Assembly: GCA_049317805.1 (NCBI GenBank)
Contig: JBMOHO010000001.1
Span: 1 to 39,943 of the forward strand
Source: Saprospiraceae bacterium
GTDB lineage: Bacteria; Bacteroidota; Bacteroidia; Chitinophagales; Saprospiraceae
Length of the DNA stretch: 39,943 nucleotides
Reading direction: 5' to 3'
This document shows positions 16,377 to 38,254 of the stretch, in pieces. Made by a program: the position numbers and the translations under genes. The notes beneath the pieces were generated by a model. The model worked only from the letters and a program-made list of their open reading frames with translations. It had not been told where the DNA came from and did no database searches. The first letter of the stretch is position 1. Each line of letters begins with the position of its first letter.

Positions 16377-16384
16377 CAAAGTTA
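16377..16384 (-). promoter_or_regulatory. Candidate -7 promoter box (TAnnTTTG) for amt
   Basis: The minus strand reads TAACTTTG, 42 nt upstream of ATG 16335. Short motif, positional support only. Confidence 0.35.
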
Positions 16385-16450
16385 GGTGATGAACGGGATT
16401 TATTTGACGAGGCAGCGGCCACAAAAAAGACCGCGCCCCAAAACACACAT

Positions 16451-16480
16451 GTTACAATAATGCCATACTTGGTTACAATA
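16451..16480 (+). promoter_or_regulatory. Direct repeat GTTACAATA-N12-GTTACAATA (21-bp period) in the amt / 16530 divergent intergenic region
   Basis: GTTACAATA occurs at 16451-16459 and 16472-16480. The identical 9-mer pair with the identical 21-bp period recurs at 26608-26637. The spacers are not conserved. Confidence 0.4.
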
Positions 16481-16529
16481 CGCCTACTCCAGTGCTTCCG
16501 ATGCCCCGAATTTTGTGAAAAATTTCCTC

Positions 16530-17084
16530 ATGAAAACTTCATCTCTTTTTTGCCTATTGTTTTTGATTCTGCCCGCTTGTATGAGCGCTCAGGCAGACGA
16601 CCAGCTTGGCGGCATGGACAGTGAACGGTACGTGTACGTCAACCGTTGGGTGTCGCCGGTGTTCAGCGATTTCGTTTCCGTCACCCAGGATCATGCTTCC
16701 GACGCCCAGATGACAAGCTGGGGCTACACCAAAAAAACGTACCAGTACTCCGGCTGGCTGTACAAACCCGCACCCAATGCCGTAGCCGTGTACCGGTGGA
16801 CGATGCCCAACTGCAAGGAGTTCATCGTGCTGGCCGAACACGAGCATACCGACACGCAGTTGACTGATTGGGGGTACACCGACAAAACATTTATGTTTTA
16901 TGCCTACAAAACCCGTTTGAACGACGACTTCGCTGCCGTCAACCGCTGGGTGAATGCCCTTCCAAACGGCAACCCTTGTCGCGATTACACCCTGAGCGTC
17001 CTTGAATCTGAATTCACCGACCAGCAGTTGACAGCCTGGGGATACCGCGACAAAAAGACGCAGTTTTACGTACTCAAGCCGTAG
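16530..17084 (+). CDS. Secreted protein (possible lipoprotein) made of three ~60-aa internal repeats
   Basis: The likely start is ATG 16530 (MKTSSLFCLLFLILPACMSAQ). The three repeats are VNRWVSP...DAQMTSWGYTKKTYQYSGWLYKP, VYRWTMP...DTQLTDWGYTDKTFMFYAYKT and VNRWVNA...DQQLTAWGYRDKKTQFYVLKP. Confidence 0.6.
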   Translation: MKTSSLFCLLFLILPACMSAQADDQLGGMDSERYVYVNRWVSPVFSDFVSVTQDHASDAQMTSWGYTKKTYQYSGWLYKPAPNAVAVYRWTMPNCKEFIVLAEHEHTDTQLTDWGYTDKTFMFYAYKTRLNDDFAAVNRWVNALPNGNPCRDYTLSVLESEFTDQQLTAWGYRDKKTQFYVLKP

Positions 17085-17115
17085 CAAAATTGGGTCAAAA
17101 CATACCCGTACAAGC

Positions 17116-17141
17116 GGGGAGTGGCGCGCATGCCGCTCCCC
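17116..17141 (+). terminator. GC-rich hairpin downstream of the repeat-protein gene (candidate intrinsic terminator without a U-tract)
   Basis: GGGGAGTGGC-GCGCAT-GCCGCTCCCC forms a 10-bp stem with one G-T pair. It lies 32 nt after the stop at 17084. Confidence 0.45.
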
Positions 17142-17216
17142 TACCCTGCCGCATGCGCTGACGCCTGAAAAATTTTTGCATTTTCATAAAAATATATGTT
17201 GTAATGTAAAAAATGC

Positions 17217-17224
17217 TACATTTG
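17217..17224 (+). promoter_or_regulatory. Candidate -7 promoter box (TAnnTTTG) for the S8 peptidase / TPR-CHAT pair
   Basis: TACATTTG lies 40 nt upstream of ATG 17264 in an AT-rich intergenic region. Confidence 0.4.
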
Positions 17225-17263
17225 CGGTATAAAGGTCATTTCAAACCCTAAATTTCAGAACCA

Positions 17264-18718
17264 ATGGAAACTACCTATCTTTTGATCATTTTGTTGCTTG
17301 TGCTGCTGCTGGTCTTGGCAGGCATCGTATTGTTTTACGGTTGGTACAATCAAAAAGACAAAGCACCAGATCAACCGGTCACACCTCCTGTTATTCCTCC
17401 GGTCAGACCATCCAAGGTTTTCCCCAAGGCTGGCCCCAATGGTGAAGACGTCGTCACTACTTATGACCCCACTTCCCTGATCTTCTCGTATTCGCCCTTT
17501 ACCGATTCGAAAGAGTGGATCAATTACGTGCACAAAAGCTTGAGAGACGCCGGTTATTTCCTGGAGGACGAGTGCGCTTGTTCAGGCAAGATTGAACTTT
17601 GGCGGTACGATAGCGATACCATGGGGCCTAAGGTGACTCTAATCGGTGATGATAAAAACGCCATTGGCAAGGGATCAACTACTACCACGGGTACCATCAG
17701 TGAGGGGAGCGGTCTGAGTTTAAATTTTGATCTGGTATACAAGCCCGAGCAGATAAGAGCCAAAAGTACAGATGATGACCGCACCAAGCCTGTTTGTGGA
17801 GGCAACCAGAAGCCGGTGCGGGTTGGTGTGGTGGATACGGGTGTAGACTATTGCCACCCCGAGTTGAATGGTTTTCTTTGGCCTTCCAAACCGCTTTCCC
17901 CTGCGGAAGTTTGTATCGGAACACCTGCTCTTTTTGGTGCCAATTTGATCACCCCAGGTGCCGCGCCCAAGGATCAACACGGACATGGTACTCAGTTGTG
18001 TGGCATTATTGCGGGTTTTGCCGATCATGATTCAGACTACAAAATGGTTAACATGGAAGTGGTCAATGTCAAATTTACCTCCGGCAGAGGGGGCAATGGC
18101 AGCCTGTTCAAGGCCATTTGCGGCGTGTATTACGCCATGAATCAAGGGGCCAAAGTGATCAACATGAGCTGGGGTTACCTCGACACTGAAGCACCCGAAC
18201 TGATGCGCCCACTGTTGGCGCGTGCTGAAAGAGAAAACATTGTACTGGTAGCAGGTATAGGCAACAACGCCGTGGCGCTGGATAAAGACCTGAGGTTCTG
18301 GCCTGCTTCTTTTGCTACAGAATCAAAAGTACTGATTTCCGTTGGCGGTTTGGAAAATCAAGATGAAACCAATTTGGCAAGCATGTCCAACTGGAGCCAT
18401 AAGCCGGAACACATGAACATTGTAGCCCTTGCAAAAGACGTACTCACCACTTTCCCGACAGATGTGGTAGACGCCAATAACAACACTGGAATGTACACGC
18501 TGAGCAGCGGCACTTCCATGTCTACGGCCATTGTCACCCGTACAGCCGCACTGTTGCGCGCTTACAATAACAATCTTACAGCCGCTCAAACCAAGCAGCT
18601 TATTATTGATTTTGGCAAGCCCGTTTCTTTGTCCACCATCAGTAATGATCCCACAAAAAGAGAAATAATCCAAACAAAATTACTTGATCAGGCTGCGGTA
18701 TTAGCGAACGTACTGTAG
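17264..18718 (+). CDS. Membrane-anchored S8 (subtilisin) family serine peptidase
   Basis: It has an N-terminal TM helix (YLLIILLLVLLLVLAGIVLFYGWY). The catalytic triad motifs are VGVVDTGVDYCHPEL (Asp), HGHGTQLCGIIAG (His) and SGTSMSTAIVTRTAA (Ser). Confidence 0.85.
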   Translation: METTYLLIILLLVLLLVLAGIVLFYGWYNQKDKAPDQPVTPPVIPPVRPSKVFPKAGPNGEDVVTTYDPTSLIFSYSPFTDSKEWINYVHKSLRDAGYFLEDECACSGKIELWRYDSDTMGPKVTLIGDDKNAIGKGSTTTTGTISEGSGLSLNFDLVYKPEQIRAKSTDDDRTKPVCGGNQKPVRVGVVDTGVDYCHPELNGFLWPSKPLSPAEVCIGTPALFGANLITPGAAPKDQHGHGTQLCGIIAGFADHDSDYKMVNMEVVNVKFTSGRGGNGSLFKAICGVYYAMNQGAKVINMSWGYLDTEAPELMRPLLARAERENIVLVAGIGNNAVALDKDLRFWPASFATESKVLISVGGLENQDETNLASMSNWSHKPEHMNIVALAKDVLTTFPTDVVDANNNTGMYTLSSGTSMSTAIVTRTAALLRAYNNNLTAAQTKQLIIDFGKPVSLSTISNDPTKREIIQTKLLDQAAVLANVL

Positions 18719-18756
18719 CGATTGCGGGCTATTATGCCACATTGCCACCACCTGCC

Positions 18757-21750
18757 ATGCGCAAATCAACTGATCAAAACCAGGCATACATACACGCCAT
18801 TACCTTAATAGCCCTTTCAGGGTTACTATGGCTGGGGTGTATGGGACAGCAGGAACCTCAGATCGTTTCTTCTGAAGCAGGTCTACAACATGCTTGTACT
18901 GATGAAAAGGTACAACAGGTTATTGATGACAAAAGAACAGCAATATCTTCCAATACGCCCTTGGAGGGTTTGCGTCATTTATGGGAAAAGCATCAGGATA
19001 GTCGTTGTTTTCGCATTGATTCCCTATTGGCCGCAGCTGCACATGACTTGGGAAGGCAGTTTGAAAACGATTGTCATGTAGCGCTTAAATGTCATCAATT
19101 GGCCTTGGAGATCAGAAAACAGATGTATACCCCTGAACCTGTCCATATCGATGTTCAACGTTCATATTTCAACATTGGGTTTAAAAATTTTGAATTAGAT
19201 GAATTAGACAGTGCGTTGTACTATTACAACCAGATACCCAAAACAGCACCCATTAACCTACCCTATTTTGTCAAAACGTACGAAACGGGGAACGTATACA
19301 TGCGAAAGGGAGAGCTTACTACAGCAGGAGCGTATTTAGATGAAGCCGAACACTATCTCCAAAAAAATCAGGATATTGACGTGCAAATTCTAACAAAAAC
19401 GCCCTCATTGATGGTCGTTGTTTCTGATTATTACCGCCAAATAAAAAAATGTAGTACGTCGATCGAAAAAGGGAAAACCGGTTTGGCCTACCTTGCTCAA
19501 AACGGCATAATAAGTCCAACCAATTACGCAGCTTTGTGCAACAACATAGGCATGGCCTGGATAGATTCACTTGGCATGGTAGCCAAGGAAATGCACCCAA
19601 TACCCACCGCCATCAGGGACTCCGCCATTTGGTACACCGTACAGGGCATTCGGGTTTTTGAAGATGCTAACGATGTAGTTCGTTTTGCCGAATCCTCCAG
19701 AAACCTTGGAAAACTATACCTACGCTGCAATCTGTATCCGCAGGCAATTGCCTGTTTGTCCAAAGCCATACAAAAAGTAAAAACCGATAACGCCGCCCTG
19801 CGCATACTTCAGGCTGAATTATTCATCAATAGAGGTGTCTGCCAGTATCATATCGGGCAATACGATTCAGCACTTGCCGACTATGATTCCGCTACATCTC
19901 TGTTGTTGCCAGCCTACCACAATGGAGCCAGTACAGCATCCGACTACTCCGAAGAGCCTATAGCCGACCTCGTAGACTTTTTTAAACTGCTTGATTCGAA
20001 GGCGCTCACCCACCTGGCGCAGTTCAAGGCTAATCCGTCGGACATAACACCACTTTGCAAAGCCGACACCATATACACCTCCCTCACCACCCTTGCCGAC
20101 CGCATGCGCTTGGAGTACTTATCCTCCGATTCGAAGCAAAACCTGTCAGCCGAGTTGCAAGGGAGATTAGATAACGCTTTTGAGGTGTGCCTGTTGCTCA
20201 AACAACATGACCCGAAGCATGCCGACCAATACCTTAATCGGGCTTTCAGCATCGCTGAAAACAGCAAGTCGGCCATGCTCCTGGAATCCGTGCGCCAAAA
20301 AAGCGCGTTTGATCAATTGTCGCCCGAGTGGAAGGCCCGGAATGCGTATTTGAAAGACCGGCAGGTGAAAATTGAAGACGACATGTTTCTCAAAAGGAAT
20401 AACCCCGGTGCCATGTCTGCTTTGCAACAAGCCTGGCGTGAAAACTTTGAGGATCAACGCCAATTCAGGGACAGCCTGGAGCAGCAAAACGCTCAATTTT
20501 TCAATGCGCGGAATTTTCATTCGGATATAGCCGCCGATGCTATTCAAAAAAATTTATTAGGCAAAGACCGCTTCCTACTGGAGTACTATACCTTCCAAAA
20601 CGAGGTGTACATTTTTGTGGTGACGCCCGACACCTTGGTGCTGCGTTCGGTGCCCCTGCAAGCCGATTTTAGCAAACAGCTGAACCTGCTGAACAGCAAA
20701 CAGGAGACAACAGAAACAATGCGCGCGGCGCACTCGATTTACAATCAATTGTTGGGGCCTGTAGACGACCTCTTGCCTGAGGGTGCCCGGCTGATCATCA
20801 TCCCCGACGCACCGTTTCACAACCTGCCGTTTGAAACGCTGCTGTGGCAATACGACGGAGGCAACGCGCAACAGCAATTGGAAAACAAACGCTACGCCCT
20901 GTTTCGCTACACCATCAGCTACTGTTATTCCGCCAACCTGCTGATGGAAATGACCAAAAAAGTGCTGCCACCGAAAACAAAGCACGAGTTGGCCGCTTTC
21001 GCACCCGATTTTGCGCAGGAACAGGTTTCACCCTGCGACCCTACCCTACCCTCCTCCCTCTGTGCGGTGCTGCCCAGCCTCACGCCATTGTCCAATGCCG
21101 ATGAACTGAACAAAATAGCCCAAAAAGTGCGCATCAAACGGTATGAAGGCGTAGAGGCAAACAAAACGAATTTCCTGGGCAGTTGCAACACACGCAGCTT
21201 GGCCCACGTGGCGTCGCATTGCGTGCTCAATGACGACGATCCGAATTTTAACTTCATTGCGTTTGCCGGGTTTAAGCCGGGGAGCCAGGAAAATGGGCTG
21301 CTTTTCCTGAACGATTTGTACGCGCAACCGCTTAACCTCGATTTTTTGGGTTTTTCTGCCTGCGAAACCTCGAAAGGCCAGTTTGTTAGCGGCGAAGGCA
21401 ACATGAGCATGGCCCGAGGCCTCACCTCTGCCGGTGTAAAGAGTTTTGTGACCACGCTCTGGCCGGTGTACTCCGACAACAATGCTGCCATTTTTCCCCG
21501 GTTTTATGCAGCCTTGCAGTCGGGCGTGCCCAAAGACGTGGCCCTGGCAGAAGCCAAGCGTGCGTTTGCCCTCGGTCAGGGCCGTTCGCCGTTCGACTGG
21601 GGCGGGCTGGTGCTCATTGGCGACGCGGGTGCCATTACGCTCCAGGATTATCGCTCTGGCGATCCCTTCCCTTGGTGGTTGATGGCGGGTTTGATGGCCA
21701 TTTCGGCTTGCACATTTTGGTTTTTCCGCTCGCGGAAACGCGTTATTTGA
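18757..21750 (+). CDS. TPR-repeat CHAT-domain protein with a lipoprotein-type signal and a C-terminal TM anchor
   Basis: The likely start is ATG 18757 (MRKSTDQ...LIALSGLLWLGC). About 550 aa of TPR-like helical repeats follow. The CHAT domain reads RLIIIPDAPFHNLPFETLL, AHVASHCVL (His) and LGFSACETSKG (Cys), then FVTTLWPV. The C-terminus is WWLMAGLMAISACTFWFFRSRKRVI. Confidence 0.8.
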   Translation: MRKSTDQNQAYIHAITLIALSGLLWLGCMGQQEPQIVSSEAGLQHACTDEKVQQVIDDKRTAISSNTPLEGLRHLWEKHQDSRCFRIDSLLAAAAHDLGRQFENDCHVALKCHQLALEIRKQMYTPEPVHIDVQRSYFNIGFKNFELDELDSALYYYNQIPKTAPINLPYFVKTYETGNVYMRKGELTTAGAYLDEAEHYLQKNQDIDVQILTKTPSLMVVVSDYYRQIKKCSTSIEKGKTGLAYLAQNGIISPTNYAALCNNIGMAWIDSLGMVAKEMHPIPTAIRDSAIWYTVQGIRVFEDANDVVRFAESSRNLGKLYLRCNLYPQAIACLSKAIQKVKTDNAALRILQAELFINRGVCQYHIGQYDSALADYDSATSLLLPAYHNGASTASDYSEEPIADLVDFFKLLDSKALTHLAQFKANPSDITPLCKADTIYTSLTTLADRMRLEYLSSDSKQNLSAELQGRLDNAFEVCLLLKQHDPKHADQYLNRAFSIAENSKSAMLLESVRQKSAFDQLSPEWKARNAYLKDRQVKIEDDMFLKRNNPGAMSALQQAWRENFEDQRQFRDSLEQQNAQFFNARNFHSDIAADAIQKNLLGKDRFLLEYYTFQNEVYIFVVTPDTLVLRSVPLQADFSKQLNLLNSKQETTETMRAAHSIYNQLLGPVDDLLPEGARLIIIPDAPFHNLPFETLLWQYDGGNAQQQLENKRYALFRYTISYCYSANLLMEMTKKVLPPKTKHELAAFAPDFAQEQVSPCDPTLPSSLCAVLPSLTPLSNADELNKIAQKVRIKRYEGVEANKTNFLGSCNTRSLAHVASHCVLNDDDPNFNFIAFAGFKPGSQENGLLFLNDLYAQPLNLDFLGFSACETSKGQFVSGEGNMSMARGLTSAGVKSFVTTLWPVYSDNNAAIFPRFYAALQSGVPKDVALAEAKRAFALGQGRSPFDWGGLVLIGDAGAITLQDYRSGDPFPWWLMAGLMAISACTFWFFRSRKRVI

Positions 21751-22558
21751 ATTTATCCTGGAGTTCTACGGCCTTTTCGCGGGCTTCTTCGTTGACAGGC
21801 CCCTGTAGGTCGGGGTCGTTTTCCAGCATGTCGTTCAGTTGGGCACGTATGGCTTTCCATTGATCCGGGTGTTCACCGAGTTTGGCCAGGAGGAGATTGA
21901 CCTTCATTTTGCCGATGCTCTTGTTGTACCGGTCCTGTTCCACCGTGCTGCGCTGAGCAAGACATTCTTCAAGGCCCTTGCGCGCTTCGGCGTAGTGTCC
22001 GTTTTTCAGTTCCCAGTGCGCCAGGTAGTAATGGGCCATGCAGAATTGGCCGCAAGATTGGGCCAGTTGAGCAAGGCTGTCGCGGCCGCCGGGTTTCAGG
22101 CCGTAATACAAGTCAGAAGAGCGCTGGAGCACATCCCGCGCGTCCATGGTACCACCGCCAGCCTGGCTGAAGTTGAACGGACGGAGCATGTGCGCCTCCA
22201 CGGGTTGAAAAGAAGGGACGGCTTGAGTGCGATACAGCAACCACAATCCGGAAAGCATGATAGTGGCCAATAAAGCGCCGGTGACAATGGGTTGGGCGCT
22301 GAAGGCAAGCCACAGTTTGTCCCACCAATTGAGTTGAGGTATGGGCAGGGGGCCGGTTTCCAGTCGAACCTGGTTGGCCAGGGTGCGCTGTTGTTCGAGT
22401 AAAAAGTAATCGTCGGCTTTTTCAGACAGGTTAAATTGGATGTAGGCTTTTTTCAGGTCGGCGTCTTGTCGAAGTGCTTTTTCAAAATCCTTTCGTTCAG
22501 CTGCGGTCAGTTGTCCGTAGAGGTATTGCTGGATTTTATCTGCGTAAGAATTGTTCAT
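21743..22558 (-). CDS. Anti-sigma-factor-like single-pass membrane protein with an extracytoplasmic TPR-like domain
   Basis: The likely start is ATG 22558 (MNNSYADKIQQYLYGQLTAAERKDFEKALRQDADLKKAY), an N-terminal pattern common in Bacteroidota anti-sigma factors. The TM helix is IVTGALLATIMLSGLWLLY. The C-terminal helical repeats include AHYYLAHWELKNGHYAEARKGLEECL. It lies directly downstream of the sigma-like gene. Confidence 0.5.
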   Translation of the reverse strand: MNNSYADKIQQYLYGQLTAAERKDFEKALRQDADLKKAYIQFNLSEKADDYFLLEQQRTLANQVRLETGPLPIPQLNWWDKLWLAFSAQPIVTGALLATIMLSGLWLLYRTQAVPSFQPVEAHMLRPFNFSQAGGGTMDARDVLQRSSDLYYGLKPGGRDSLAQLAQSCGQFCMAHYYLAHWELKNGHYAEARKGLEECLAQRSTVEQDRYNKSIGKMKVNLLLAKLGEHPDQWKAIRAQLNDMLENDPDLQGPVNEEAREKAVELQDKFK

Positions 22559-22586
22559 GATGAGCAGAAGATTAGGTTTAGGTCGT

Positions 22587-23213
22587 TTATGCAAACGTGT
22601 TAAAAAAATCGTCCAGGTCTTCCCGCATACTTTTCAGGATGATGCGGAGCTTTTCCCGGCAACGGGTTAGTGTTTGAGGTACAGAGCCAGCCGAAAGTGG
22701 TTTTTCGTCCGGTTTCTTTTGTTCGTTGGCGCGCTCGGCAAGTACGGACTTGTCGGTCACCGGCGGTTCTTCGAGGTAGTACAACCACATGAGGAGGCTG
22801 CACTGGTCGCCGAGTTGACCGACTGCCCGTTCAACCACTTCGCGCAAATTGAACCGCTCGTTGGCTTCCGGGTCTGTGATCATGAGCCGCAGGTAGTCTA
22901 TCGGCAGTTCATCGGAGGCGTTGATGCCTTTTCGACGAGCTGCTGTGCACACGTTGCGGCACAGGCCGTGGAAGTAAGACCGCAGGTTGGTGCGGGGGCC
23001 GCGTCCGGCTTGAATTTCAACGACTACCCGAATGACGGCTTCGTGGAATACGTCCTCCCAGTCCATCAGGGTAGTCAATGCGCTAAACTGCCGGCTTACC
23101 TTGTAGGCTGTTTTTTGGAGGTCTTTGTTGTTGTACAACAGTTCGTAAGCCTCTTTCATGCTTTCATCGGTACCGGTCAGTACCGCATTTCTAATCGCAT
23201 TAATGTCGGACAT
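22587..23213 (-). CDS. Divergent ECF-like sigma-70 family factor
   Basis: The region-2-like segment is WEDVFHEAVIRVVVEI...LRSYFHGLCRNVCTAARRKG. The region-4-like segment is LGDQCSLLMWLYYLEE...SAGSVPQTLTRCREKLRIIL, with an unusual ~25-aa insertion where the first HTH helix is expected. Confidence 0.55.
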   Translation of the reverse strand: MSDINAIRNAVLTGTDESMKEAYELLYNNKDLQKTAYKVSRQFSALTTLMDWEDVFHEAVIRVVVEIQAGRGPRTNLRSYFHGLCRNVCTAARRKGINASDELPIDYLRLMITDPEANERFNLREVVERAVGQLGDQCSLLMWLYYLEEPPVTDKSVLAERANEQKKPDEKPLSAGSVPQTLTRCREKLRIILKSMREDLDDFFNTFA

Positions 23214-23375
23214 AATGAGCGTTCAAAGGTTAGTAACAGAAAGAGGGTTAAAATAAACAAGTCGAACGCATGAAATAACGATATTATACAAAAAAAGATT
23301 ATAAGTACCGGCATATGGCATGCAAAGATAAAAACATGCGGCCAGGGAATCACTCCACTGGCACAAACTCTGCAA

Positions 23376-24929
23376 CTATGCTTCCTCAGCCTTCCACTCC
23401 TGCACGTTTTTGGCCTCTACGTCGAAGGCCACGCCCACCAGCGTCAGCGGTTTGCCGGCGGAGCGGAAACGTTCCGGGTAGCCTTTGGCGCGAATCTGGC
23501 CCAGCGCCGCCTCTGCGCGCTCGCGCAACTTGAACTCAAACACATACACGCGCCCGCCCGTGTCGAGCACCGCGTCCATGCGGCCCTGGTTGGTGGGAAT
23601 TTCGGAGTGGACGACGAAGCCCGTGAGCGTGAGCACGACGTGTACTACGGTGTGGAAATACGACTCCTGCGTGCCCGCGATCTGGTACGGGATGGAGGCG
23701 AACAGGCTGGACAGTACCCGAAAAAAAGCCTCAAGGTCGCCCGCCTCCAGCGCATCGCGCATCTTGTCGGTGTAGGTGTGCTCTGTGAGGAACACGGGTT
23801 TGTCGGTGTACTCGGCCAGCAGGTTTTTCAAAAAGGAGCTTTTGACCTCCTCGTTGGGGTACGACAGGTGGTAGCGCTGGCGCAGCGGGTTGGACGCATC
23901 AATTCTTTTTATGGTCAGGTAGCCCGTCTGGAACAGCAGCGAGACGGGGTCAATGGCGCTCACGTCGGCACTTTCCAGCAGGGCCTCCGAGCCGGACACG
24001 CTTTCCAGTTCGTAGGCCGTGATTTGCCTTTTTTTCAGCAACCGGGTCAGAAAAGACGGTGTGCCGGTGGTGAACCAGTAGTTGGCGAAGCGTCTGTCGG
24101 CAAAAAAATTGAGCAGGGAAAAAGGGTTGTACACCGTGTTCTTCCCGTCCCAGGAGTAGCCGTTGTAGTAAAACCGAACGGCTTCGAGCAGCTTCGGCAT
24201 GGGCATCCCGATATCGCGGCCGGCGCGTTCCATGTAGGGCTGAAAATTGGCCAGCACCTCCTCCTCGCTCCAGCCCAGCAGGCAAGAAAAATCGGGGTTC
24301 ATGGTGATGTCGTTCAGGTTGTTCAGGTCGGAGAAAATAGACACCCGTCCGTACTTGGACACCCCGGTGATGAACACGAAATGGATGCAGCGGTCCAGCG
24401 ACTTGAGCGTGGCGTAAAAATTCTTCAGGGTGCGCACGTTTTCCTGGATGCGCTCCTCCTCCTCGCCCAGAAAATCGGTGATGGCCTTGTCGTACTCATC
24501 TATGAGCACCACGACCTTGCGGTCGGCGCTGCTCAGGGTTTCGAGCAGTTCCACAAATTTCCCTTTGTAATCGGCCTGCGTTAGGCGGACGTTGTTGTCG
24601 CGTGCATTGGCTTCCATCTGTTTGTCCAGCTCGATCGGTAGCGGGTTGGAGAGATAGTCCATCTGGTTGAAGTCCACCCGGATCACCGGGTACGGTTCCC
24701 AAGTGATCTTGTCCTCGATCCACAGGCCCTGGAACGGCGTTTTGTTTCCCCGAAAAATCTCGTGCAGCGTGCTGACCAGCAGCGACTTGCCGAAGCGCCG
24801 CGGCCGGGACAGGAACAGGTATGGGCCAGCCTGGAGCAGCCGGTGAATCTGTTCGGTCTTGTCCACGTACAGGTAGCCATCGCCGATGAGCGAGGGGAAG
24901 TCCTGTTTGCCGATGGGAAGTTTTTTCAT
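23376..24929 (-). CDS. Predicted AAA-ATPase (AAA-ATPase_like) + PD-(D/E)XK nuclease family protein
   Basis: MKKLPIGKQDFPSLIGDGYLYVDKTEQIHRLLQAGPYLFLSRPRRFGKSLLVSTL..FQGLWIE is the stereotyped N-terminus of this very common Bacteroidota family. The C-terminal part (...EIPTNQGRMDAVLDTGGRVYVFEFKL...) fits the PD-(D/E)XK module. Confidence 0.85.
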   Translation of the reverse strand: MKKLPIGKQDFPSLIGDGYLYVDKTEQIHRLLQAGPYLFLSRPRRFGKSLLVSTLHEIFRGNKTPFQGLWIEDKITWEPYPVIRVDFNQMDYLSNPLPIELDKQMEANARDNNVRLTQADYKGKFVELLETLSSADRKVVVLIDEYDKAITDFLGEEEERIQENVRTLKNFYATLKSLDRCIHFVFITGVSKYGRVSIFSDLNNLNDITMNPDFSCLLGWSEEEVLANFQPYMERAGRDIGMPMPKLLEAVRFYYNGYSWDGKNTVYNPFSLLNFFADRRFANYWFTTGTPSFLTRLLKKRQITAYELESVSGSEALLESADVSAIDPVSLLFQTGYLTIKRIDASNPLRQRYHLSYPNEEVKSSFLKNLLAEYTDKPVFLTEHTYTDKMRDALEAGDLEAFFRVLSSLFASIPYQIAGTQESYFHTVVHVVLTLTGFVVHSEIPTNQGRMDAVLDTGGRVYVFEFKLRERAEAALGQIRAKGYPERFRSAGKPLTLVGVAFDVEAKNVQEWKAEEA

Positions 24930-25034
24930 GGGCGCGAAGGTAGGGAAAAGCGTGCAATGCGGTTTTTACTCCACGGGCACAAACCCCGCCCACTGGTACG
25001 GGTTAATGAGCCGTGTACCAAACCATGCCTACGT

Positions 25035-25433
25035 TTATAAATGTTCCGAATTTGGTGGCATAATGCGCTTTTTCCGCAGACTTATGACCGCCACAACGGC
25101 CGTGATCAAGAACGGAAGACTCCACACAATGATCTTCCAGTTCATGGCCAACAGCCCGATAACAAATAACAATATCATGATGGTGCTCAAACAAACCAGA
25201 CCGGCGAGAAACAACGCTTTTTTGGGCTTTGTTTGAAATAAGGTCACCAGCAACATTATTTGTCCGAGCATGGGCAATATGGTGAACGGATGGATAACCG
25301 ACAAAGGGCTGTTCCAAAGTTTTTGAAAAACGACGACTTCCAGTTCGTACAGAAATCCGTGGTTGCCGCCGCCCCATTCGAGGTAGCCGATGAGGGAACT
25401 GAGGAAAAGAATAAGGATAATAGGCTTTTTCAT
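25035..25433 (-). CDS. Small hypothetical membrane protein (about four TM helices)
   Basis: 132-aa ORF: MKKPIILILFLSSLIGYLEWGGGN... with four hydrophobic segments and a clean ATG start. No family recognised. Confidence 0.5.
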   Translation of the reverse strand: MKKPIILILFLSSLIGYLEWGGGNHGFLYELEVVVFQKLWNSPLSVIHPFTILPMLGQIMLLVTLFQTKPKKALFLAGLVCLSTIMILLFVIGLLAMNWKIIVWSLPFLITAVVAVISLRKKRIMPPNSEHL

Positions 25434-25683
25434 GGTGTTTCAATATATGACTATTCTACCAATACAAACCCCGCCCACGCCATCGCTCAATTATTCCACT
25501 AATGTAAAAAAAACAACCATAAACGATCAAAATATTTGGAATGTGTAGTTGAATAAAAAAATTTGCAAGCTGGTGTTGATTGGGATGCAAGACCTGTTAC
25601 TACCCTTTAACATCGGCTAATGAGCCCCAAATGCCAGGTACCGTGTTTTCCTGCTTATCCCCCCTGAGAAGCCATAAAACCAA

Positions 25684-26196
25684 ATGAAGTGGAATCAACT
25701 CCCGTCCGGAAAGCCGGACGGGAAATTCCTTAGCCGCCACCTTGCGTATTGCACCCCATCCATTTTCCAGGCATCATCTTCCCCCCTCATCATGAACCAA
25801 ACAGCATACCTCCCCAACTACAGTGCCCCCTCCCCTGCCCTATTGGCTCCCATGCGTTCGCGCACCGGCGAATTGCTGATCAACCGCATTCAGGAAGCCA
25901 TCATCCACCACATCGACGACGAGGCGTTTGGCCCCTTTGAATTGGCCAAAGCGATGGGCATGAGCCGCTACCACCTGCACCGGCTGATCAAATCGGCCAC
26001 AGGCCTGAAAACCACCGAACTCATGCACCAGGTGCGCATAAAGCATGCCTGCTCCATCCTGATGTCCACCGGTTATTCGGTCAAGGAAGTGGCCTATGCC
26101 GTGGGGTACAGCACGCCGAGTTATTTTACGCGGGTGTTTCGGCAGGTAATGGGGGTGTGCCCGCAGGGATATTTAAGGAGTGCCGTGGCAGAATAA
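25684..26196 (+). CDS. AraC-family HTH transcriptional regulator (DNA-binding domain only)
   Basis: The C-terminal ~100 aa read LINRIQEAIIHHIDDEAFGPFELAKAMGMSRYHLHRLIKSATG...VKEVAYAVGYSTPSYFTRVFRQVMGVCPQGY, the double HTH of AraC/XylS. The start is uncertain; internal Met codons lie at about 25792 and 25852. Confidence 0.75.
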   Translation: MKWNQLPSGKPDGKFLSRHLAYCTPSIFQASSSPLIMNQTAYLPNYSAPSPALLAPMRSRTGELLINRIQEAIIHHIDDEAFGPFELAKAMGMSRYHLHRLIKSATGLKTTELMHQVRIKHACSILMSTGYSVKEVAYAVGYSTPSYFTRVFRQVMGVCPQGYLRSAVAE

Positions 26197-26361
26197 GCAT
26201 CATCTTCGAATATCCGTGAAGGGGAGGTTACTATTTTGAACGACGGGGGTGGCATATACGAGCTGCGTTTATCCGGTCATATTCCAGCTGGTTTGTACTT
26301 CATACAACTGACTGACGTAGCCGGCAAACAGGAAACGTTGTTGTTTTGTGTGCAAGATTAA
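26197..26361 (+). pseudogene. Orphan remnant of a T9SS C-terminal sorting domain (Por_Secre_tail-like), no start codon
   Basis: The frame directly after the AraC stop reads ASSSNIREGEVTILNDGGGIYELRLSGHIPAGLYFIQLTDVAGKQETLLFCVQD*. The ...L..G.Y.I.L.....K....L pattern resembles the CTD at the end of the 38257 gene. There is no Met or upstream coding sequence, and a hairpin terminator follows. Confidence 0.55.
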
Positions 26362-26382
26362 CAATTAACTGGTCTTTTTTGG

Positions 26383-26425
26383 ACAGCGGAAAGCCAATAG
26401 TTGTGGTTTTCCGCTGTTTTTTTTG
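26383..26425 (+). terminator. Intrinsic terminator (hairpin + T-run) belonging to the decayed T9SS-tail gene
   Basis: ACAGCGGAAA-(14 nt)-TTTTCCGCTGT is followed by TTTTTTTT. It lies 22 nt after the TAA of the remnant. Confidence 0.55.
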
Positions 26426-26607
26426 GGTAAAATTTAGAAATGTTGACCATTAATGAGCCGCTACATAAATCGGATGCATCTGCTTCGCTTCCTTGACCCA
26501 GGATATAGCAGTAAAGGTAGCATATTCTCTTACCATTGATCAGGAGACACTCGTATTCCTGGAGCAGCACTACTCTGCAGGGCTGTACAGATGTATCGGA
26601 CGCGCAT

Positions 26608-33743: not shown

Positions 33744-34047
33744 AGACTACCCAGATTTTCACAGATTATTCATCCATATTTCAAAAAAGCAATCTGTGAA
33801 AATCAGAGTAATCTGTGGTGCATCAATGGCAAAATGGATATTTATACCCACCACAGACTACCCAGATTTTCACAGATTATTCATCCATATTTCAAAAAAG
33901 AATCTGTGAAAATCAGAGTAATCTGTGGTGCATCAATGGCAAAATGGATATTTATACCCACCACAGACTACCCAGATTTTCACAGATTATTCATCCATAT
34001 TTCAAAAAAGAATCTGTGAAAATCGGAGTAATCTGTGGTGAATCAAT
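33741..34047. repeat. Tandem repeat, 2.8 copies of a 110/111-bp unit, each with an internal 14-bp inverted repeat
   Basis: Units start at 33741, 33852 and 33962. Copies 1 and 2 differ by one extra C. Copy 3 has two substitutions and breaks off after 86 nt. Each unit contains GATTTTCACAGATT, then 22-23 nt, then AATCTGTGAAAATC, plus a third AATCTGTG 19 nt further on. Confidence 0.95.
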
Positions 34048-34095
34048 TGAGGATGAGCGTCCAGTAGTTCATGGCTTACAGGGACTGTCTACCCC

Positions 34096-37000
34096 TCACG
34101 CCACCGGCTCTTTCCCCAATATCCGTTTCAATTCCGCAATCGCGTTGTCCTCCACAAAATAGCTGAGGTGGTCAGCCGGTATGATCGTGATGTCTTGTGG
34201 CGCAATCAGTCCGTTCGGGCCTTTTTGGCTGCTCACTTCCACCAACCAGTCGTGCGGCTCGTCAAACACAAACCAATCCAGGGTTTTTTTGACCACAAAT
34301 CGCTTGAGGCGCTTGAAAAACTTTGCGGACTCATTGTCCAAACGATCCAGCTCTGTAGAGTCGCCGCCCAACAAGCTGTAGCGCACCGAATCGGGTTTGT
34401 TGGTCGGGAAATTGAGGTTTTTGATGAAATCAGACTTGGGATTTTGCTGATCGATGGTCACAAATACCGCTTTGCCAATGGTTTTGGCGATGTACGACAG
34501 CGGCACGATGTAGGGTTTCAGCACCGCCACCCCGTTGAGTGCCCGACCCAGCAAGCCAAAAATCTTTTTGTGAAAACCAGACAGGTCTGAACCCAAACTC
34601 GGCGAACCCACCAGCAGCACATGCTGCACAAATGCGCCGCCATCCGTTTTTTCCACCATCCAGCGGCACACCAATCCGGCCATCGACGGCGCCACCATGG
34701 TGATGCGGGCACCCTTTTCGGGCAAACAGGCGTCTACGCTTTTCAACCGCGCCAGCATGTCGCCGGCCGTTTTTTCCAGCGGCGTGTTCAGTGCCTCGTA
34801 CTCGTACGCCAAAAACACGTCGTACTGCGCAGCAATGCCCAACTGGGTCATTTGTTCAATTTTGTCCTCTATGTTCACCAGATTGCCGTGGGTGACAAAC
34901 AGGATGGAATTGGCCTGCGACACCACAGCGCGCACCTGCTCCACGTCGGTTACCCGGATGCCGTCGGGCTGAATCATCATCAACGTGTTCGGCAGCTTCT
35001 GGTACCTCATTTTTTTGAAAAAGAGCTTGACGGCCCTAAACACGCCGCGCTCCTGCAGGTCCGACGCGCCGCCGCCCAACACACCCGGCGTGGCGTCGGG
35101 CAGGGTGATGATCTCCACGTCGCCATTTTCGTTGGTGTAGCCCATGGGCAGGTACAGTTCCGTTTCGGCGTCGTAGCCGTACGGCACAATGACTTCATCC
35201 GCACCGGCTTTTTCATCCAATTCGAGGCGCAAAGGCTCGGTGAGTTCGCCAAACACCTCGGTGAGTTGAAGAATGGACACCGCCTCATCGTATTGCACTT
35301 CAAAAGAACGCGAAAAAACGCCGCTTTCCGTGGCCGTATCGCCCCAAAGGGACGCCGGTGGCAGCACAAATTTTTCCATTTCTGCCGACACGCTGCGGGT
35401 TCCGTTGTCGCTTGTTTTCAACAGGTCGCGCACGTCGGCCACCGTACACAGGGTGGCTTTGGCGCTGAAACCCGCTGGTTTGCCAGTGATGCGGAAACCG
35501 CCGCCCGACACCTGTGTCAGCTCCACAGGGGCCGAAGGACACACGATGCGCACCGGAATGGTGATCACGCACCAGTCGGGTTTGGTGGCACCCGGTTTTT
35601 GACCGAACCCGCCGCGTTTGTCGCTCTCCTCCACGTCAACAGGCAGCGGCGGCTGCACAAAATTGTTCAGTTCAAAATACTGGTTAGACACGAATACCTT
35701 GAGGTACTCCGTGATCTCGCGCACTCCCCGCTGCAATATTTCTTTTCTGATAAACAGCGGAATGGCGTTGAACGTGGCACCGTCGGAATGGAAATCGAAG
35801 GTGTGCGATTGCCCGAAGTCTGTTTGCTGCGGTTTCATCGACAAGGTGACGCCGCACTCATTGTCTAAGTACAAGCCACCCACGTAATAGCCGGGCTTGT
35901 TTATTTTCACGGTGCAACGGAGGGCCGGAATCTCTTCGGAACCGTCGGCGCCGTAGCGGTAAGTGAGTTTCACCCCATTGCGGCCAACGGATGTGCCCTC
36001 TGCAGTTTGGATGGTGTCTGGACTGATGTTGTCCAACACCTCCAGGCGGATGTCGATATCGCCGGCGCGCAACCCTTCAAACGGCGGCCGATCCAGTTCC
36101 TGCACAAAACGCCATTTGCCCACGCCGTCGCAGAACGACACAAACACGCCAGCCGCTTCCTGGCGCATGAACACGGGGTAGCTGTTGTCTTTTTTGAGCA
36201 GCATGTATTTGCCGTTGGCGTCGGTGCGCACCACGTAATCGGCGTCCGCTTTACTTACTGCATCAAAACGACAATAGACCGGTTTGCTGAACGCCACGAT
36301 GTTATCCAACGAACGGCGCTGCTCGGGGTCATCTACGTCTATGAAAATGCTGATTTTGGGCGCGGCCATGTCCTGGATAACGCCCATTCGTTTGCCCTCT
36401 TTGGCCAAGGCCACATCGGCGTCGTTCAATGCGCCCTCAGGCACATCCAGCACGGAGTAGGTAGACAGCACCTCTTTGACGGCAAAAACGGCATGTTCCA
36501 CTTTCACGGTCGTGGGGTGTTCGGGCGTGCCCGCCACGATGCCCTGCAGGGCACCGCCTTTGAGCTGCCATTCGCCTTTTTCAAACAAGATGGGAAACGA
36601 CAGGTCATGTTGTTCAAAGTGGCCGCCCAGAAATCCGTCGTGCAATTGTGCGCCGCCCCAGGCATCCACCTGCGGAATCTGGTCGCTCACCCGGTTGCGC
36701 ACCAGGGCACCTGTGCGGCGGGCTATTTCGGGGTAACTCAACGCAGCACCGCCCTCTTGCAGCACCCGCAACAGGCAGTGGGTGAATACGCCGCGGGGTT
36801 TGCCTTCAATGCGCATCTCCTTGGCCAACTCGCTGTCGCGGGCCGCCGCCAAATGGATGTGGCGCGCCTCGCGGGCATAAAAAGCCTTGCCGTCGATGAG
36901 GTCGAACACCTGATCGGTTACGGGTATGCCCTGCACGCCGAGCAGGTTTTGAAAAGCACTGGCAGCATACGTGGCCTGCGCGTGGCGCACCCGCACGTCG

Positions 37001-37542
37001 CCGTCGCCCTCACCGCGGGTGCCGCTGCCGGAGTGGCAACTGTCGGTAATCACCAGCACATGTGCCTCGGGTTGGTTGCGGTACACGCGGTGGATGAGGT
37101 AAGCCAGTTCTTTGTCCAGGAGGTCGCGCGAGCCGCTGCGGCTGTCGAGGCACACCAGCGTTTCGTTCATGCCGTCGGACTTCAGGTGGGCAAATTCGGG
37201 CGCTGCGCTTTCCTGGGAGCCGTGACCGCTGTAATAAAACAGGCACACGTCACCGGGTTTTACCGCGTCGGTGCACAGGTGGTCAAAGGCGTCAATGAGT
37301 CCCTGGCGCGTGGGCAGGGCGCGTTCGGGCAGGGCGTCCAGTTCAGATGCCAACGCAGCAACAGACTCCAGTTCGTGCGCATGCGGGGCCAGCAGGTACT
37401 TTGGCCGCCACTGGAGTTCGTTTTTGCGGCTAAATTGTTGGAAAAAAGCGCCGACAGCCAGGGTGTCGGGCACGCAGCCGTTGAGCGGGCTTTGCGGGTA
37501 AGCGTTGATGCCCACGAGCAGGGCATGGATGGTGTTTGTCAT
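34096..37542 (-). CDS. Giant fusion protein: N-terminal caspase (peptidase C14) domain, ~500-aa unknown middle, C-terminal alpha/beta-hydrolase-like domain
   Basis: The caspase part reads IHALLVGINAY, CLFYYSGHGS (His) and VLVITDSCHSGSG (Cys). The C-terminal ~290 aa read ILFVTHGNL..., YDVFLAYEYEALN, ITMVAPSMAGLVCRW (nucleophile-elbow position, Ser codon 34684-34686), VLLVGSPSLGS, EPHDWLVEVSS and IPADHLSYF, which is the order and spacing of a Ser-Asp-His hydrolase. Confidence 0.8.
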   Translation of the reverse strand: MTNTIHALLVGINAYPQSPLNGCVPDTLAVGAFFQQFSRKNELQWRPKYLLAPHAHELESVAALASELDALPERALPTRQGLIDAFDHLCTDAVKPGDVCLFYYSGHGSQESAAPEFAHLKSDGMNETLVCLDSRSGSRDLLDKELAYLIHRVYRNQPEAHVLVITDSCHSGSGTRGEGDGDVRVRHAQATYAASAFQNLLGVQGIPVTDQVFDLIDGKAFYAREARHIHLAAARDSELAKEMRIEGKPRGVFTHCLLRVLQEGGAALSYPEIARRTGALVRNRVSDQIPQVDAWGGAQLHDGFLGGHFEQHDLSFPILFEKGEWQLKGGALQGIVAGTPEHPTTVKVEHAVFAVKEVLSTYSVLDVPEGALNDADVALAKEGKRMGVIQDMAAPKISIFIDVDDPEQRRSLDNIVAFSKPVYCRFDAVSKADADYVVRTDANGKYMLLKKDNSYPVFMRQEAAGVFVSFCDGVGKWRFVQELDRPPFEGLRAGDIDIRLEVLDNISPDTIQTAEGTSVGRNGVKLTYRYGADGSEEIPALRCTVKINKPGYYVGGLYLDNECGVTLSMKPQQTDFGQSHTFDFHSDGATFNAIPLFIRKEILQRGVREITEYLKVFVSNQYFELNNFVQPPLPVDVEESDKRGGFGQKPGATKPDWCVITIPVRIVCPSAPVELTQVSGGGFRITGKPAGFSAKATLCTVADVRDLLKTSDNGTRSVSAEMEKFVLPPASLWGDTATESGVFSRSFEVQYDEAVSILQLTEVFGELTEPLRLELDEKAGADEVIVPYGYDAETELYLPMGYTNENGDVEIITLPDATPGVLGGGASDLQERGVFRAVKLFFKKMRYQKLPNTLMMIQPDGIRVTDVEQVRAVVSQANSILFVTHGNLVNIEDKIEQMTQLGIAAQYDVFLAYEYEALNTPLEKTAGDMLARLKSVDACLPEKGARITMVAPSMAGLVCRWMVEKTDGGAFVQHVLLVGSPSLGSDLSGFHKKIFGLLGRALNGVAVLKPYIVPLSYIAKTIGKAVFVTIDQQNPKSDFIKNLNFPTNKPDSVRYSLLGGDSTELDRLDNESAKFFKRLKRFVVKKTLDWFVFDEPHDWLVEVSSQKGPNGLIAPQDITIIPADHLSYFVEDNAIAELKRILGKEPVA

Positions 37543-37563: not shown

Positions 37564-37581
37564 GGTTGTAAAGTTACAACC
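37564..37581. repeat. Perfect 8-bp palindrome GGTTGTAA-AG-TTACAACC between the Uma2 pseudogene and the caspase gene start
   Basis: Read directly from the sequence. It contains the TAA stop of the Uma2 frame (37574-37576) and lies 22 nt upstream of the caspase ATG (37542). The 2-nt spacer is too short for a hairpin loop, so if it is functional it is more likely a protein-binding site. Confidence 0.5.
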
Positions 37582-38084
37582 AAATTTTACCTATGCAAAC
37601 TTCAAAACCAGGCAAAACATCGTCTCCGCTCAAAAGAACCTCAAAGGAAACTTCTGCAACTGCTTGTTCAGGGCGGTAGATGTACGTTTTGCGATGCTGC
37701 GGATCAATTAACCAGCCGAGCGCGCAGCCACAAGTGGTGTATTCTTCCATTTTTTCCTTCAAACCAGACAAGTTTTGGTCGGGGGAACGAATTTCCGCCA
37801 CAAAATCGGGGACGATGGGCGCAAATTTTCGACGATCAGTTGCGGGCAATGCTTCCCAGCGTTCCCGACGAATCCAGGCTAAGTCTGGTGAGCGCTCGGC
37901 TCCATTGGGCAGTGGAATTGGTGGGTGGCATGATGACAATGAATTTATCCCAGGTGCGCTCTATCCGCAAATCCGGGTTCAACAGACAAAACCGGTAAAA
38001 TTGCTCCTCAGACATGCCACCGTCAGGCAATTGAAAAGCAATGCCAGGAAAATTACGGGCTGTATTTGCTGCAGCAATAGTCAT
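37574..38084 (-). pseudogene. Uma2-family (DUF820) endonuclease gene disrupted by an internal out-of-frame deletion
   Basis: The N-terminal part is in ORF 37836..38084 (...MSEEQFYRFCLLNPDLRIERTWDKFIVIMPPT). The C-terminal part is in another frame, ORF 37574..37939 (PLPNGAERSPDLAWIRRERWEALPATDRRKFAPIVPDFVAEIRSPDQ...GWLIDPQHRKTYIYRPEQ). In intact family members as I remember them, ~35-40 aa separate the MPPT and LPNG..RSPD motifs. Here the two motifs abut with a frame change near 37925-37935. Confidence 0.6.
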
Positions 38085-38118
38085 ACAGGCATCATTTGTT
38101 GCAAATATATGCCATTTT

Positions 38119-38254
38119 ACGGAATGCGGAATGCGGAATGCGGAATTTTCTCATCCTTTCGGATTTTATGCATCATTCCCAATAATGCAGCAAAAAAATT
38201 GAGGGAATGTGCAAATTCCGCATTCCGTATTCCGCATTCCGCACTCCGTATTCC
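38119..38254. repeat. Inverted pair of GGAATGC heptamer tandem arrays (potential ~26-bp stem with ~68-nt loop)
   Basis: The left arm is (GGAATGC)x3+GGAAT at 38121-38146. The right arm, at 38214-38254, is the complement: ATTCCGC ATTCCGT ATTCCGC ATTCCGC ACTCCGT ATTCC. It lies immediately downstream of the stop (38257) of the T9SS protein gene. Confidence 0.9.

Follow-up and report, generated by a model that had tools for sequence, protein, structure and literature searches.

A caspase–lipase-like hydrolase fusion protein as a candidate effector of nSTAND1-linked conflict systems in bacteria

What is the role of a bacterial protein that carries a caspase domain at one end and a lipase-like hydrolase at the other: does it sense, does it kill, or does it do both? 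The question is raised by a gene at positions 34096 to 37542, on the reverse strand, of a 39,943-nucleotide stretch of DNA from a Saprospiraceae bacterium (contig JBMOHO010000001.1 of assembly GCA_049317805.1, positions 1 to 39,943; hereafter the window). An original prediction, made from the sequence of the window alone, compared the encoded protein to the effector-sensor fusions of conflict systems. We show here that the domains of this protein can be identified, that its active sites are intact, that the gene is under purifying selection, and that the family to which it belongs is linked to protease-nSTAND1 genes. From this standpoint we consider, with a probability of about one half, that the gene supplies the effector in a conflict or abortive-infection system of the nSTAND1 (NLR-like) type. 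The protein would be a cytoplasmic zymogen in which the caspase domain and a family-specific module, M1, are tethered via a second module, M2, to the lipase-like hydrolase, and it would be licensed by proteolysis.

Domains and active sites of the caspase-hydrolase protein

The open reading frame (ORF) is exactly the one originally claimed (34096–37542, 1148 residues). Its two ends had been read as a complete C14 caspase, with His in YYSGHGS and Cys in DSCHSGS, and as an alpha/beta hydrolase with a triad of Ser953 (34684–34686), Asp1098 in EPHDW and His1125 in PADHLSYF, and our searches bear out both assignments. At the N-terminus, the Pfam profile PF00656 (Peptidase_C14) matches residues 6–293 (E 3e-19, 70 bits), passing its gathering cut-off of 21.4, and the PADLOC 'caspase' profile matches with an E-value of 1e-24. 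The nearest solved sequences in a PDB sequence search, GSU0716 and metacaspases, have a DSCHSG motif that aligns with that of the query, and Foldseek against the PDB returns the caspase-hemoglobinase fold (AtMC9 at 4e-11, TbMCA2, AtMC4 and MALT1 caspase-Ig3; E-values 4e-11 to 1e-7). The domain thus shares its fold, His-Cys dyad and D-x-C-H-S-G motif with metacaspases, orthocaspases and the MALT1 paracaspase (MEROPS C14B), and as in MALT1 caspase-Ig3 it is followed by a beta domain. It differs from the C14B proteins in its M1-M2-lipase extension, in having no N-terminal prodomain, and in its bacterial conflict-system context. The D-x-C-H-S-G motif implies Arg/Lys specificity, and with Asp167 in the S1 position of D-x-C the caspase is predicted to cleave after Arg or Lys at P1.

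The C-terminal domain is identified by fold and by profile. Its Pfam match, to DUF7379 (PF24096) across residues 894–990, scores 23.9 bits (E 4.5e-5), under the cut-off of 33; precomputed PF24096 matches are present in nearly all full-length homologues. Foldseek against the PDB matches the domain, with E-values of ~3e-6, to the lipases of Streptomyces (MAS1, 5h6g), P. aeruginosa (1ex9) and B. licheniformis (6wpy) and to PlaB, and a profile of the domain finds 7x2p (5.6e-9), family I lipases (~1e-6), Bacillus LipA and PlaB among solved sequences. The secondary-structure elements follow the canonical order of strand, HG, strand-Ser953-helix, lid, Asp1098 and His1125, with the flexible lid at approximately residues 986–1044. 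Judged from the sequence, a Ser-Asp-His triad is present in canonical order together with an HG oxyanion motif. The original prediction thus passes the test it had set for itself, in which the lack of an alpha/beta-hydrolase fold or of a triad would have refuted it. The domain resembles family I lipases, LipA and PlaB in the A-H-S-M-G-G elbow, the HG motif, the order of the triad and the insertion of the lid after strand beta6, whereas it is not secreted, is fused to a protease, is ~15% identical to these enzymes and, in the window allele, has Ala at Ser+2. The suggestion that this hydrolase might have been repurposed as a sensor or scaffold is difficult to reconcile with a triad and an oxyanion motif that are invariant across phyla.

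An AlphaFold2 model of the full-length protein, made from an alignment of 113 sequences, has a mean predicted local distance difference test score (pLDDT) of 83, rising to ~90 in the hydrolase core, with low-confidence loops at residues 172–179, 638–654, 746–748 and 1023–1025. No signal peptide or transmembrane (TM) segment is found in the 1148-residue protein (highest 19-residue Kyte-Doolittle mean 1.45), as the original prediction had held. Neither a Pfam scan nor a dedicated EAD11 search finds an EAD adaptor in it. Recurrent sub-threshold EAD11 matches (E 0.5–9) at one place in homologous proteins were considered as a hidden EAD11 and rejected because such matches in homologues are not independent.

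The ~540 residues that lie between the two enzymatic domains make up M1 and M2. When modelled alone, residues 296–870 have a pLDDT of 87 and a predicted template modelling (pTM) score of 0.79. This region had been described as matching nothing known, and that description stands: the middle regions of four divergent members give no Pfam match up to an E-value of 10, Foldseek with residues ~296–870 gives no PDB fold match at E ≤ 1e-3 with a meaningful TM-score, and nothing meaningful is found in the viral structures of BFVD. Weak Ig-like resemblances to TEAD-YBD and RhoGDI (target TM-score 0.2–0.44) were dropped as domain assignments. When the middle region was compared exhaustively, by phmmer, with 1.84 billion representatives, 278 proteins in total were found, 150 of them at E ≤ 1e-10. 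Almost all of the 278 have it at residues ~295–870 of proteins of 1100–1250 residues, the remainder being caspase-M1 proteins of 630–720 residues and a few longer ones. M1 always follows a caspase or a pseudocaspase; it recurs in the caspase-M1-only proteins and in one pseudocaspase-M1-EAD11 protein. The latter is a paralogue (locus L007, 15352–18516) in which FFAGNSS and LDHPQS replace SGHG and DSCHSG, so that the caspase dyad is dead; M1 comes next and EAD11 forms the C-terminus. Its cluster also contains a family member together with the genes of a caspase/AAA (MoxR-like) set. A weak vWA match is confined to the analogous gene of locus L010.

Apart from one change in the nucleophile elbow, the window copy is an ordinary member of its family. 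The elbow reads A-[HPS]-S-M-G-G across the family, typically A-H-S-M-G-G, which we take to be the AxSxG lipase variant of Bacillus LipA, and A-P-S-M-G-G in the near clade. The window copy has A-P-S-M-A-G, with GCC at codon 955 where its 97% relative has GGC. The atypical A-x-S-x-A elbow noted in the original prediction is therefore present, but it is an allele-specific G955A change and no family trait, since Ala at Ser+2 is found in just 1 of 116 full-length members, the window copy itself. Ala satisfies the Sm-x-Nu-x-Sm rule for nucleophile elbows, and the elbow fits the Sm-x-Ser-x-Sm form both in the family and in the query. Comparison with the 97% relative gives 117 synonymous and 33 non-synonymous codon differences, a pN/pS of ~0.10 that indicates purifying selection and no decay. 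It might be supposed that the window allele is hypomorphic or heading to inactivation, G955A crippling the lipase in a locus that is eroding through a Uma2 pseudogene, the insertion of miniature inverted-repeat transposable elements (MITEs) and separation from its sensor. Ala955 is indeed unique among 116 relatives at an otherwise invariant Gly, and decay and insertions in the flanks are documented. Nevertheless, the low pN/pS, the intact 1148-codon ORF and the conformity of Ala to the elbow rule make such a reading improbable, and the substitution could also be a single-base assembly or sequencing error.

Family distribution and linkage to sensor genes

A search of a 5.8-billion protein set yields 480 matches, most of which span 98–100% of the query and carry both PF00656 and PF24096; many of the distant relatives also match PGAP1, LCAT, Palm_thioest, DUF676 or Abhydrolase_6. 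A scan of one genome per species yields 471 related loci. The best 80 of these are from Saprospiraceae, Lewinellaceae, Chitinophagaceae, Cytophagales, Spirosoma, many filamentous cyanobacteria, Chloroflexota and Planctomycetota, and Bradyrhizobium and Mesorhizobium are represented among the 480 protein matches. The family is spread over four or more phyla and hundreds of species, and its phyletic pattern is skewed to filamentous or complex bacteria. The PF00656 plus DUF7379 combination is common and catalogued (as 'caspase family protein' at NCBI), which lowers the novelty of the architecture. The family itself is uncharacterised, and the literature on DUF7379, orthocaspase-hydrolase architectures and caspase-phospholipase defence systems yielded no description of this fusion. 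Source names for the relatives are 'caspase family protein', 'pimeloyl-ACP methyl ester carboxylesterase' and 'triacylglycerol esterase/lipase'; since a family so widespread is annotated only in this way, one experimental characterisation would annotate many genomes. When the C-terminal domain was used as a profile against the 5.8-billion set, the matches were confined to generic lipase-family proteins of Streptomyces and a single fragment, and this is uninformative on stand-alone DUF7379 hydrolases that adjoin caspases.

In an alignment of 116 full-length members, drawn from at least five phyla, His107, Cys169 and Asp167 of the caspase and His885-Gly886, Ser953, Asp1098 and His1125 of the hydrolase are invariant or nearly so. 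Counted by locus, the His/Cys dyad and S1 Asp of the effector are kept in 85 of 86. A TM-like hydrophobic tail follows the hydrolase in 21 of 113 relatives and is absent from the window protein; the tailed relatives are all longer (~1210–1280 residues) and distant, and many are cyanobacterial (L009, L032–L083; proteins such as P0059 and P0103).

The neighbours of the gene were surveyed by running hidden Markov models made from the window proteins over 80 species-level loci, 75 of them full-length and from different species, together with precomputed Pfam matches (PF20703). An nSTAND1 gene is present in the flank of 39 of the 75 full-length loci and lies within 1 kb in 24 of those; in 21 it follows directly downstream in the same orientation. 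The distances provide an internal control, 62% of the nearest nSTAND1 genes being located in the closest 10% of the range. Where at least 5 kb is available on both sides (38 loci), nSTAND1 is present in 26, and nSTAND1, a further caspase gene or CHAT in 32. The caspase domains on the sensor side retain His, Cys and D-x-C in 36 of 36 cases. The sensor modules, WD40, TPR or FGE, are carried by separate nSTAND1 NTPases. A 63% relative (in a Saprospiraceae metagenome-assembled genome) and Chitinophaga niabensis have a divergent CHAT and nSTAND1 pair adjoining the gene, Kamptonema has a caspase-nSTAND1-WD40 gene 1.5 kb downstream, and further loci contain caspase-S8, caspase-WD40, caspase-amidase-GDSL or caspase/MoxR/vWA sets. 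In the window, CHAT, nSTAND1-TM-FGE and EAD11-CHAT genes lie 2–10 kb from the caspase-hydrolase gene, the first two being homologous to those adjoining the gene of the 63% relative. In the nSTAND1 NTPase of the window, one TM helix, at approximately residues 505–524, precedes the FGE-sulfatase domain, suggesting an extracytoplasmic sensor. The original intuition of a conflict system was right, given that the gene sits in a defence island and its relatives adjoin STAND sensors; the idea of an effector-sensor fusion is not sustained, the sensor being a separate nSTAND1 NTPase and the caspase-hydrolase protein its effector partner.

Does the protein need such a partner at all? It could be a self-contained dual effector that is activated with no upstream protease, for example by dimerisation, by Ca2+ or by a phage trigger bound to M1/M2 as the sensor, the caspase then degrading cellular or phage proteins broadly in the manner of PCaspase, alongside the action of the lipase. 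In favour, neither catalytic site varies, M1 is the constant companion of the caspase even in proteins consisting only of those two parts, and M1/M2 have no known fold, leaving room for a binding role; divergence from the 88% relative peaks in these modules. Six of the 38 well-flanked loci are partnerless, and the 97% relative has no adjacent nSTAND1 gene. However, tight operonic linkage to caspase-nSTAND1 or to CHAT plus nSTAND1 in most loci favours an external sensor, and M1/M2 are moderately conserved across phyla, unlike the hypervariable modules of known sensors. We therefore regard independent action as unlikely.

Close relatives show how the locus has been rearranged. In the 97% relative there is an intact Uma2 gene on one flank, and the EAD11-CHAT gene is directly adjacent, 360 bp downstream. 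Relative to this genome the window has insertions at 32813–34093 (1.28 kb, comprising the MITE repeats and a cassette) and 32191–32544 (PIN). It also has a variable island of ~19.6 kb (11645–31293) that is represented by 0.8 kb in the relative, where CHAT and nSTAND1-FGE are absent. Within the island are genes for a TonB-dependent receptor and an ammonium transporter, S8 and TPR-CHAT genes, AAA-ATPase_like/PDDEXK_9, an AraC regulator, CHAT and nSTAND1-TM-FGE. Compared with the 88% relative (L001), the upstream Uma2 DNA and the downstream cassette are 97–99% identical, whereas the gene body from about codon 50 on diverges by 7–27% in nucleotides, with many synonymous changes. A divergent gene body between near-identical flanks suggests recombination in which a divergent allele took the place of the earlier one.

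This history also bears on whether the gene serves defence. Stress-induced cell death in cyanobacteria has been associated with orthocaspases, and the skew of the family towards filamentous or complex bacteria would fit a role in cell death during development or under stress, or in the remodelling of membranes, in bacteria that are filamentous or multicellular, the location in a defence island being incidental. The neighbours, which are STAND NTPases, CHAT, EAD11, MoxR/vWA, PIN and Uma2, speak for conflict, and the allelic-replacement mosaic and variable island are hallmarks of conflict systems. A purely physiological function hence seems to us improbable, although the two roles are compatible.

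Candidate processing sites and a proposed mechanism

The pairing of a caspase with a hydrolase has precedents. Caspase domains in NTP-dependent conflict systems are always accompanied by a neighbouring alpha/beta-hydrolase gene and an effector pair has been predicted (Kaur, Burroughs, Iyer, Aravind 2020, PMC7159879). In Lysobacter capsici, LcHydrolase is a zymogen that becomes toxic when LcCaspase cuts it at two R|G sites (Evans et al. 2025, PMC12642450). Our system resembles this pair in coupling a caspase-like Cys protease to a lipase-like alpha/beta hydrolase linked to STAND or other sensors, in a licensing logic based on proteolysis at P1-Arg sites (here candidate sites), and in its soil, multicellular or otherwise complex hosts. 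In contrast to that pair, protease and hydrolase are here one polypeptide with ~540 orphan residues of M1/M2 between them, a second protease (caspase or CHAT) is on or beside the sensor, and the hosts are Bacteroidota and Cyanobacteria in place of Actinobacteria and Pseudomonadota. The candidate Arg sites are in linkers and the caspase domain, unlike those of LcHydrolase, with which DUF7379 is compared by description only. A second precedent, SAVED-CHAT and PCaspase of type III-B CRISPR/CBASS, also co-encodes two caspase-fold proteases; the sensor-coupled CHAT cleaves and activates the second caspase, which carries out abortive infection (Steens et al. 2023, bioRxiv 10.1101/2023.06.23.546230). 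Here the sensor is an nSTAND1 NTPase and not cyclic oligoadenylate/SAVED, the downstream caspase carries a fused lipase, and cleavage is proposed. Finally, nSTAND1/EAD conflict systems (Kaur et al. 2021, PMC8195603) and STAND-FGE sensors diversified by diversity-generating retroelements (DGRs; Dore et al. 2024, PMC10907252) have counterparts in the nSTAND1-TM-FGE sensor, CHAT proteases and EAD11 adaptor of the window. Unlike in those systems, the caspase-hydrolase protein is without an EAD, and a search of the window for the template/variable repeat pair of a DGR acting on the nSTAND1-FGE sensor found none. The caspase/hydrolase pairing is accordingly already known, and the fused form with an orphan middle and a second, sensor-borne protease is an uncharacterised variant of it.

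Candidate processing sites were defined as positions that are at least 75% Arg/Lys among the 113 relatives and lie in flexible loops with a small or acidic P1' residue. Four arginines, R176, R643, R716 and R832, look like the P1 sites of an Arg-specific protease in their pattern of conservation, and cleavage at them is an extrapolation from that pattern. The loop containing R643 is the most variable and indel-rich of the protein, R643 being a lone conserved basic residue within it, and the loop is retained in the caspase-M1-only proteins. R716 and R832 are in blocks with an average pLDDT of ~67–77. A blind scan for conserved residues in variable neighbourhoods selects eight positions in the whole protein; the top two are R643 and R716, both in 53-column indel-rich stretches, and R186 is a third. 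The hydrolase core contains no conserved R-G dipeptide, and the conserved P1-Arg candidates 176, 643, 716 and 832 are all upstream of it.

From these features we infer the scheme that follows, including its order of events, its cleavages at arginines, lipids as the substrate and defence as the phenotype. The nSTAND1 NTPase would sense an invader through its variable module, which is a transmembrane FGE in the window and WD40 or TPR in relatives. The NTPase would then oligomerise, turning on its fused caspase domain or, in Bacteroidota, the co-encoded CHAT protease. Cuts after R176, R643, R716 and R832 would be made by the sensor-linked protease, by the caspase of the effector itself upon recruitment or dimerisation, or by both. 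Such cutting would free or un-inhibit the lipase, leading to attack on membrane lipids and to death or arrest of the cell. Membranes are the likely target of the hydrolase, the C-terminal TM tail of the 21 relatives counting in favour.

Several observations weigh against this scheme. The lipid substrate is guessed from similarity of fold and sequence only, and auto-inhibition of the lipase is a supposition. The conserved arginines sit outside the hydrolase core, unlike the two LcHydrolase sites, and they could have structural or binding roles. The effector has no recognisable EAD adaptor, EAD11 being found only on the neighbouring 289-residue CHAT protein. In the window the sensor operon is convergent with the caspase-hydrolase gene and not adjacent to it, with insertions between the two, and it is missing from the corresponding place in the 97% relative; 6 of the 38 well-flanked loci have no partner at all. 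In addition, Ala955 might weaken the nucleophile elbow of the window allele.

A more elaborate version of the proteolytic scheme, which we put forward tentatively, is a two-tier caspase cascade. The initiator caspase or CHAT of an nSTAND1 'apoptosome' would cleave an executioner pro-caspase whose M1/M2 hold the lipase inactive, and cuts at the four arginines would both mature the caspase and release the lipase to destroy membranes. Caspase-M1 would on this account be a reusable 'executioner cassette', deployed also without the lipase or with EAD11. If true, the cascade would constitute a fused, self-amplifying death effector without a described counterpart.

The effector caspase might instead serve as an adaptor or decoy. 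Caspase-M1 would dock on the sensor caspase or CHAT by homotypic dimerisation, much as CARD or EAD domains do, the sensor-side protease alone would cut, and the lipase would be the sole killer. Caspase-fold domains are indeed present on both sensor and effector, the effector is without an EAD, the dead-dyad pseudocaspase-M1-EAD11 paralogue shows that caspase-M1 can work without catalysis, and a report on VMAP systems describes ~70% of the caspases in the effector position as inactive (Kaur 2020, PMC7159879). The dyad and S1 Asp of this effector are on the other hand invariant in 85 of 86 loci, which argues that catalytic activity itself is under selection, and we consider a non-catalytic caspase slightly less plausible than independent action of the protein.

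Death effectors licensed by a protease are emerging as a dominant logic in prokaryotic immunity and as the background from which eukaryotic caspase/NLR signalling evolved. To these the present family would add a fused protease-lipase effector paired with a sensor-borne caspase, and so a candidate initiator/executioner cascade, as well as ~540 confidently folded, unclassified residues that always accompany a caspase. The sharply defined candidate cleavage sites make the proteolytic model directly testable.

The locus and its neighbouring genes

Table 1. Features of the caspase-hydrolase gene and its surroundings in the window
Feature	Position	Strand	Remarks
Caspase-hydrolase gene	34096–37542	−	ATG start, TGA stop, 1148 codons; order caspase, M1, M2, lipase-like hydrolase
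Metacaspase-type Peptidase_C14 domain	36658–37542	−	Residues 1–295
Catalytic His107	37222–37224	−	Caspase domain; YYSGHGS
Catalytic Cys169	37036–37038	−	Caspase domain; DSCHSGS
S1 Asp167	37042–37044	−	Caspase domain; D-x-C motif
Arg176	37015–37017	−	Basic in 113/113; loop 172–179 (pLDDT < 50), seven residues past Cys169; candidate p20/p10-type autoprocessing site
Arg186	36985–36987	−	Invariant; follows Arg176
M1	35542–36657	−	Residues 296–667; family-specific beta-rich plus alpha/beta module
Arg643	35614–35616	−	R 96, K 8 of 113 (basic 104/113); loop 638–654, pLDDT < 50; candidate cleavage or pseudosubstrate site
M2	35047–35541	−	Residues 668–832; second family-specific beta module with helical insert; links M1 to hydrolase
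Arg716	35395–35397	−	R 100, K 3 of 113 (basic 103/113); hypervariable loop of M2
Arg832	35047–35049	−	Basic in 113/113; P1' S, D or G; end of M2, just ahead of hydrolase leader strand
Lipase-like alpha/beta hydrolase (DUF7379)	34099–35046	−	Residues 833–1148; conserved SIKLFFKK-type leader strand (837–846) at start
Oxyanion motif HG	34885–34890	−	Residues 885–886; hydrolase domain
Nucleophile Ser953	34684–34686	−	Hydrolase domain; codon verified
Ala955	34678–34680	−	Ser+2 of elbow; Gly in all other family members
Asp1098	34249–34251	−	Hydrolase triad; EPHDW
His1125	34168–34170	−	Hydrolase triad; PADHLSYF
CHAT-domain protease	26792–28534	+	580 aa; first gene of sensor operon; 38% identical to CHAT adjoining the 63% relative
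nSTAND1 NTPase-TM-FGE	28531–31239	+	902 aa; FGE-sulfatase (C-type-lectin fold) domain; presumed sensor
EAD11 adaptor plus short CHAT protease fusion	31295–32164	+	289 aa; next to caspase-hydrolase gene in the 97% relative
PIN toxin (PIN_3)	32086–32601	−	171 aa
GC-poor (0.34) two-gene cassette	33040–33743	−	101 aa and 127 aa; no Pfam match
MITE/REP-like repeats	33741–34047		Three tandem 110-nt units; directly 3' of caspase-hydrolase gene
Inverted repeat 8+2+8	37564–37581		GGTTGTAA-CT-TTACAACC; overlaps Uma2 stop codon
Uma2 pseudogene	37574–38084	−	Directly upstream; frame-shifting internal deletion

Upstream of the caspase-hydrolase gene the original prediction had pointed to a decayed Uma2 gene and a perfect palindrome at 37564–37581. 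The former is correct, the pseudogene having lost 98 bp internally by comparison with intact copies. The latter proves to be an 8+2+8 inverted repeat that a substitution disrupts in the 88% relative; by our estimate ~0.6 such repeats are expected by chance per 40 kb. With its 2-nt loop, its loss in the 88% relative and this chance expectation, we rejected it as a hairpin or terminator. It contains TAACTTTA (37569–37576), a near match to TAnnTTTG, the Bacteroidota −7 promoter element, and TTTG (37596–37599) lies 19 nt upstream; a possible promoter at these two motifs is an inference only.

Downstream, each 110-nt repeat unit is an imperfect hairpin with 33-nt arms that are ~88% complementary. 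The repeats replace the 5' part of a 158-residue ORF that is intact in L001, leaving a 101-residue remnant at 33438–33743. The cassette to which this remnant belongs resembles a small toxin/immunity-type insert, matches L001 at ~98–99% identity and is missing in the 97% relative. The PIN_3 gene overlaps a 95-residue upstream ORF (together 32086–32807); in the 97% relative the region of the small ORF is kept and the PIN part is gone. Elsewhere in the variable island, a Peptidase_S8 gene (484 residues) with a TPR-CHAT gene (1002 residues) immediately after it at 17264–21750 constitutes a second protease pair.

On the far side of the Uma2 remnant the locus is adjoined by a type IX secretion system (T9SS) cargo gene (Por_Secre_tail). 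Between the remnant and this T9SS cohesin/dockerin gene, arrays of GGAATGC and ATTCCGC heptamer-like repeats at 38118–38254 form an inverted repeat with 58-nt arms that is partly conserved in relatives.

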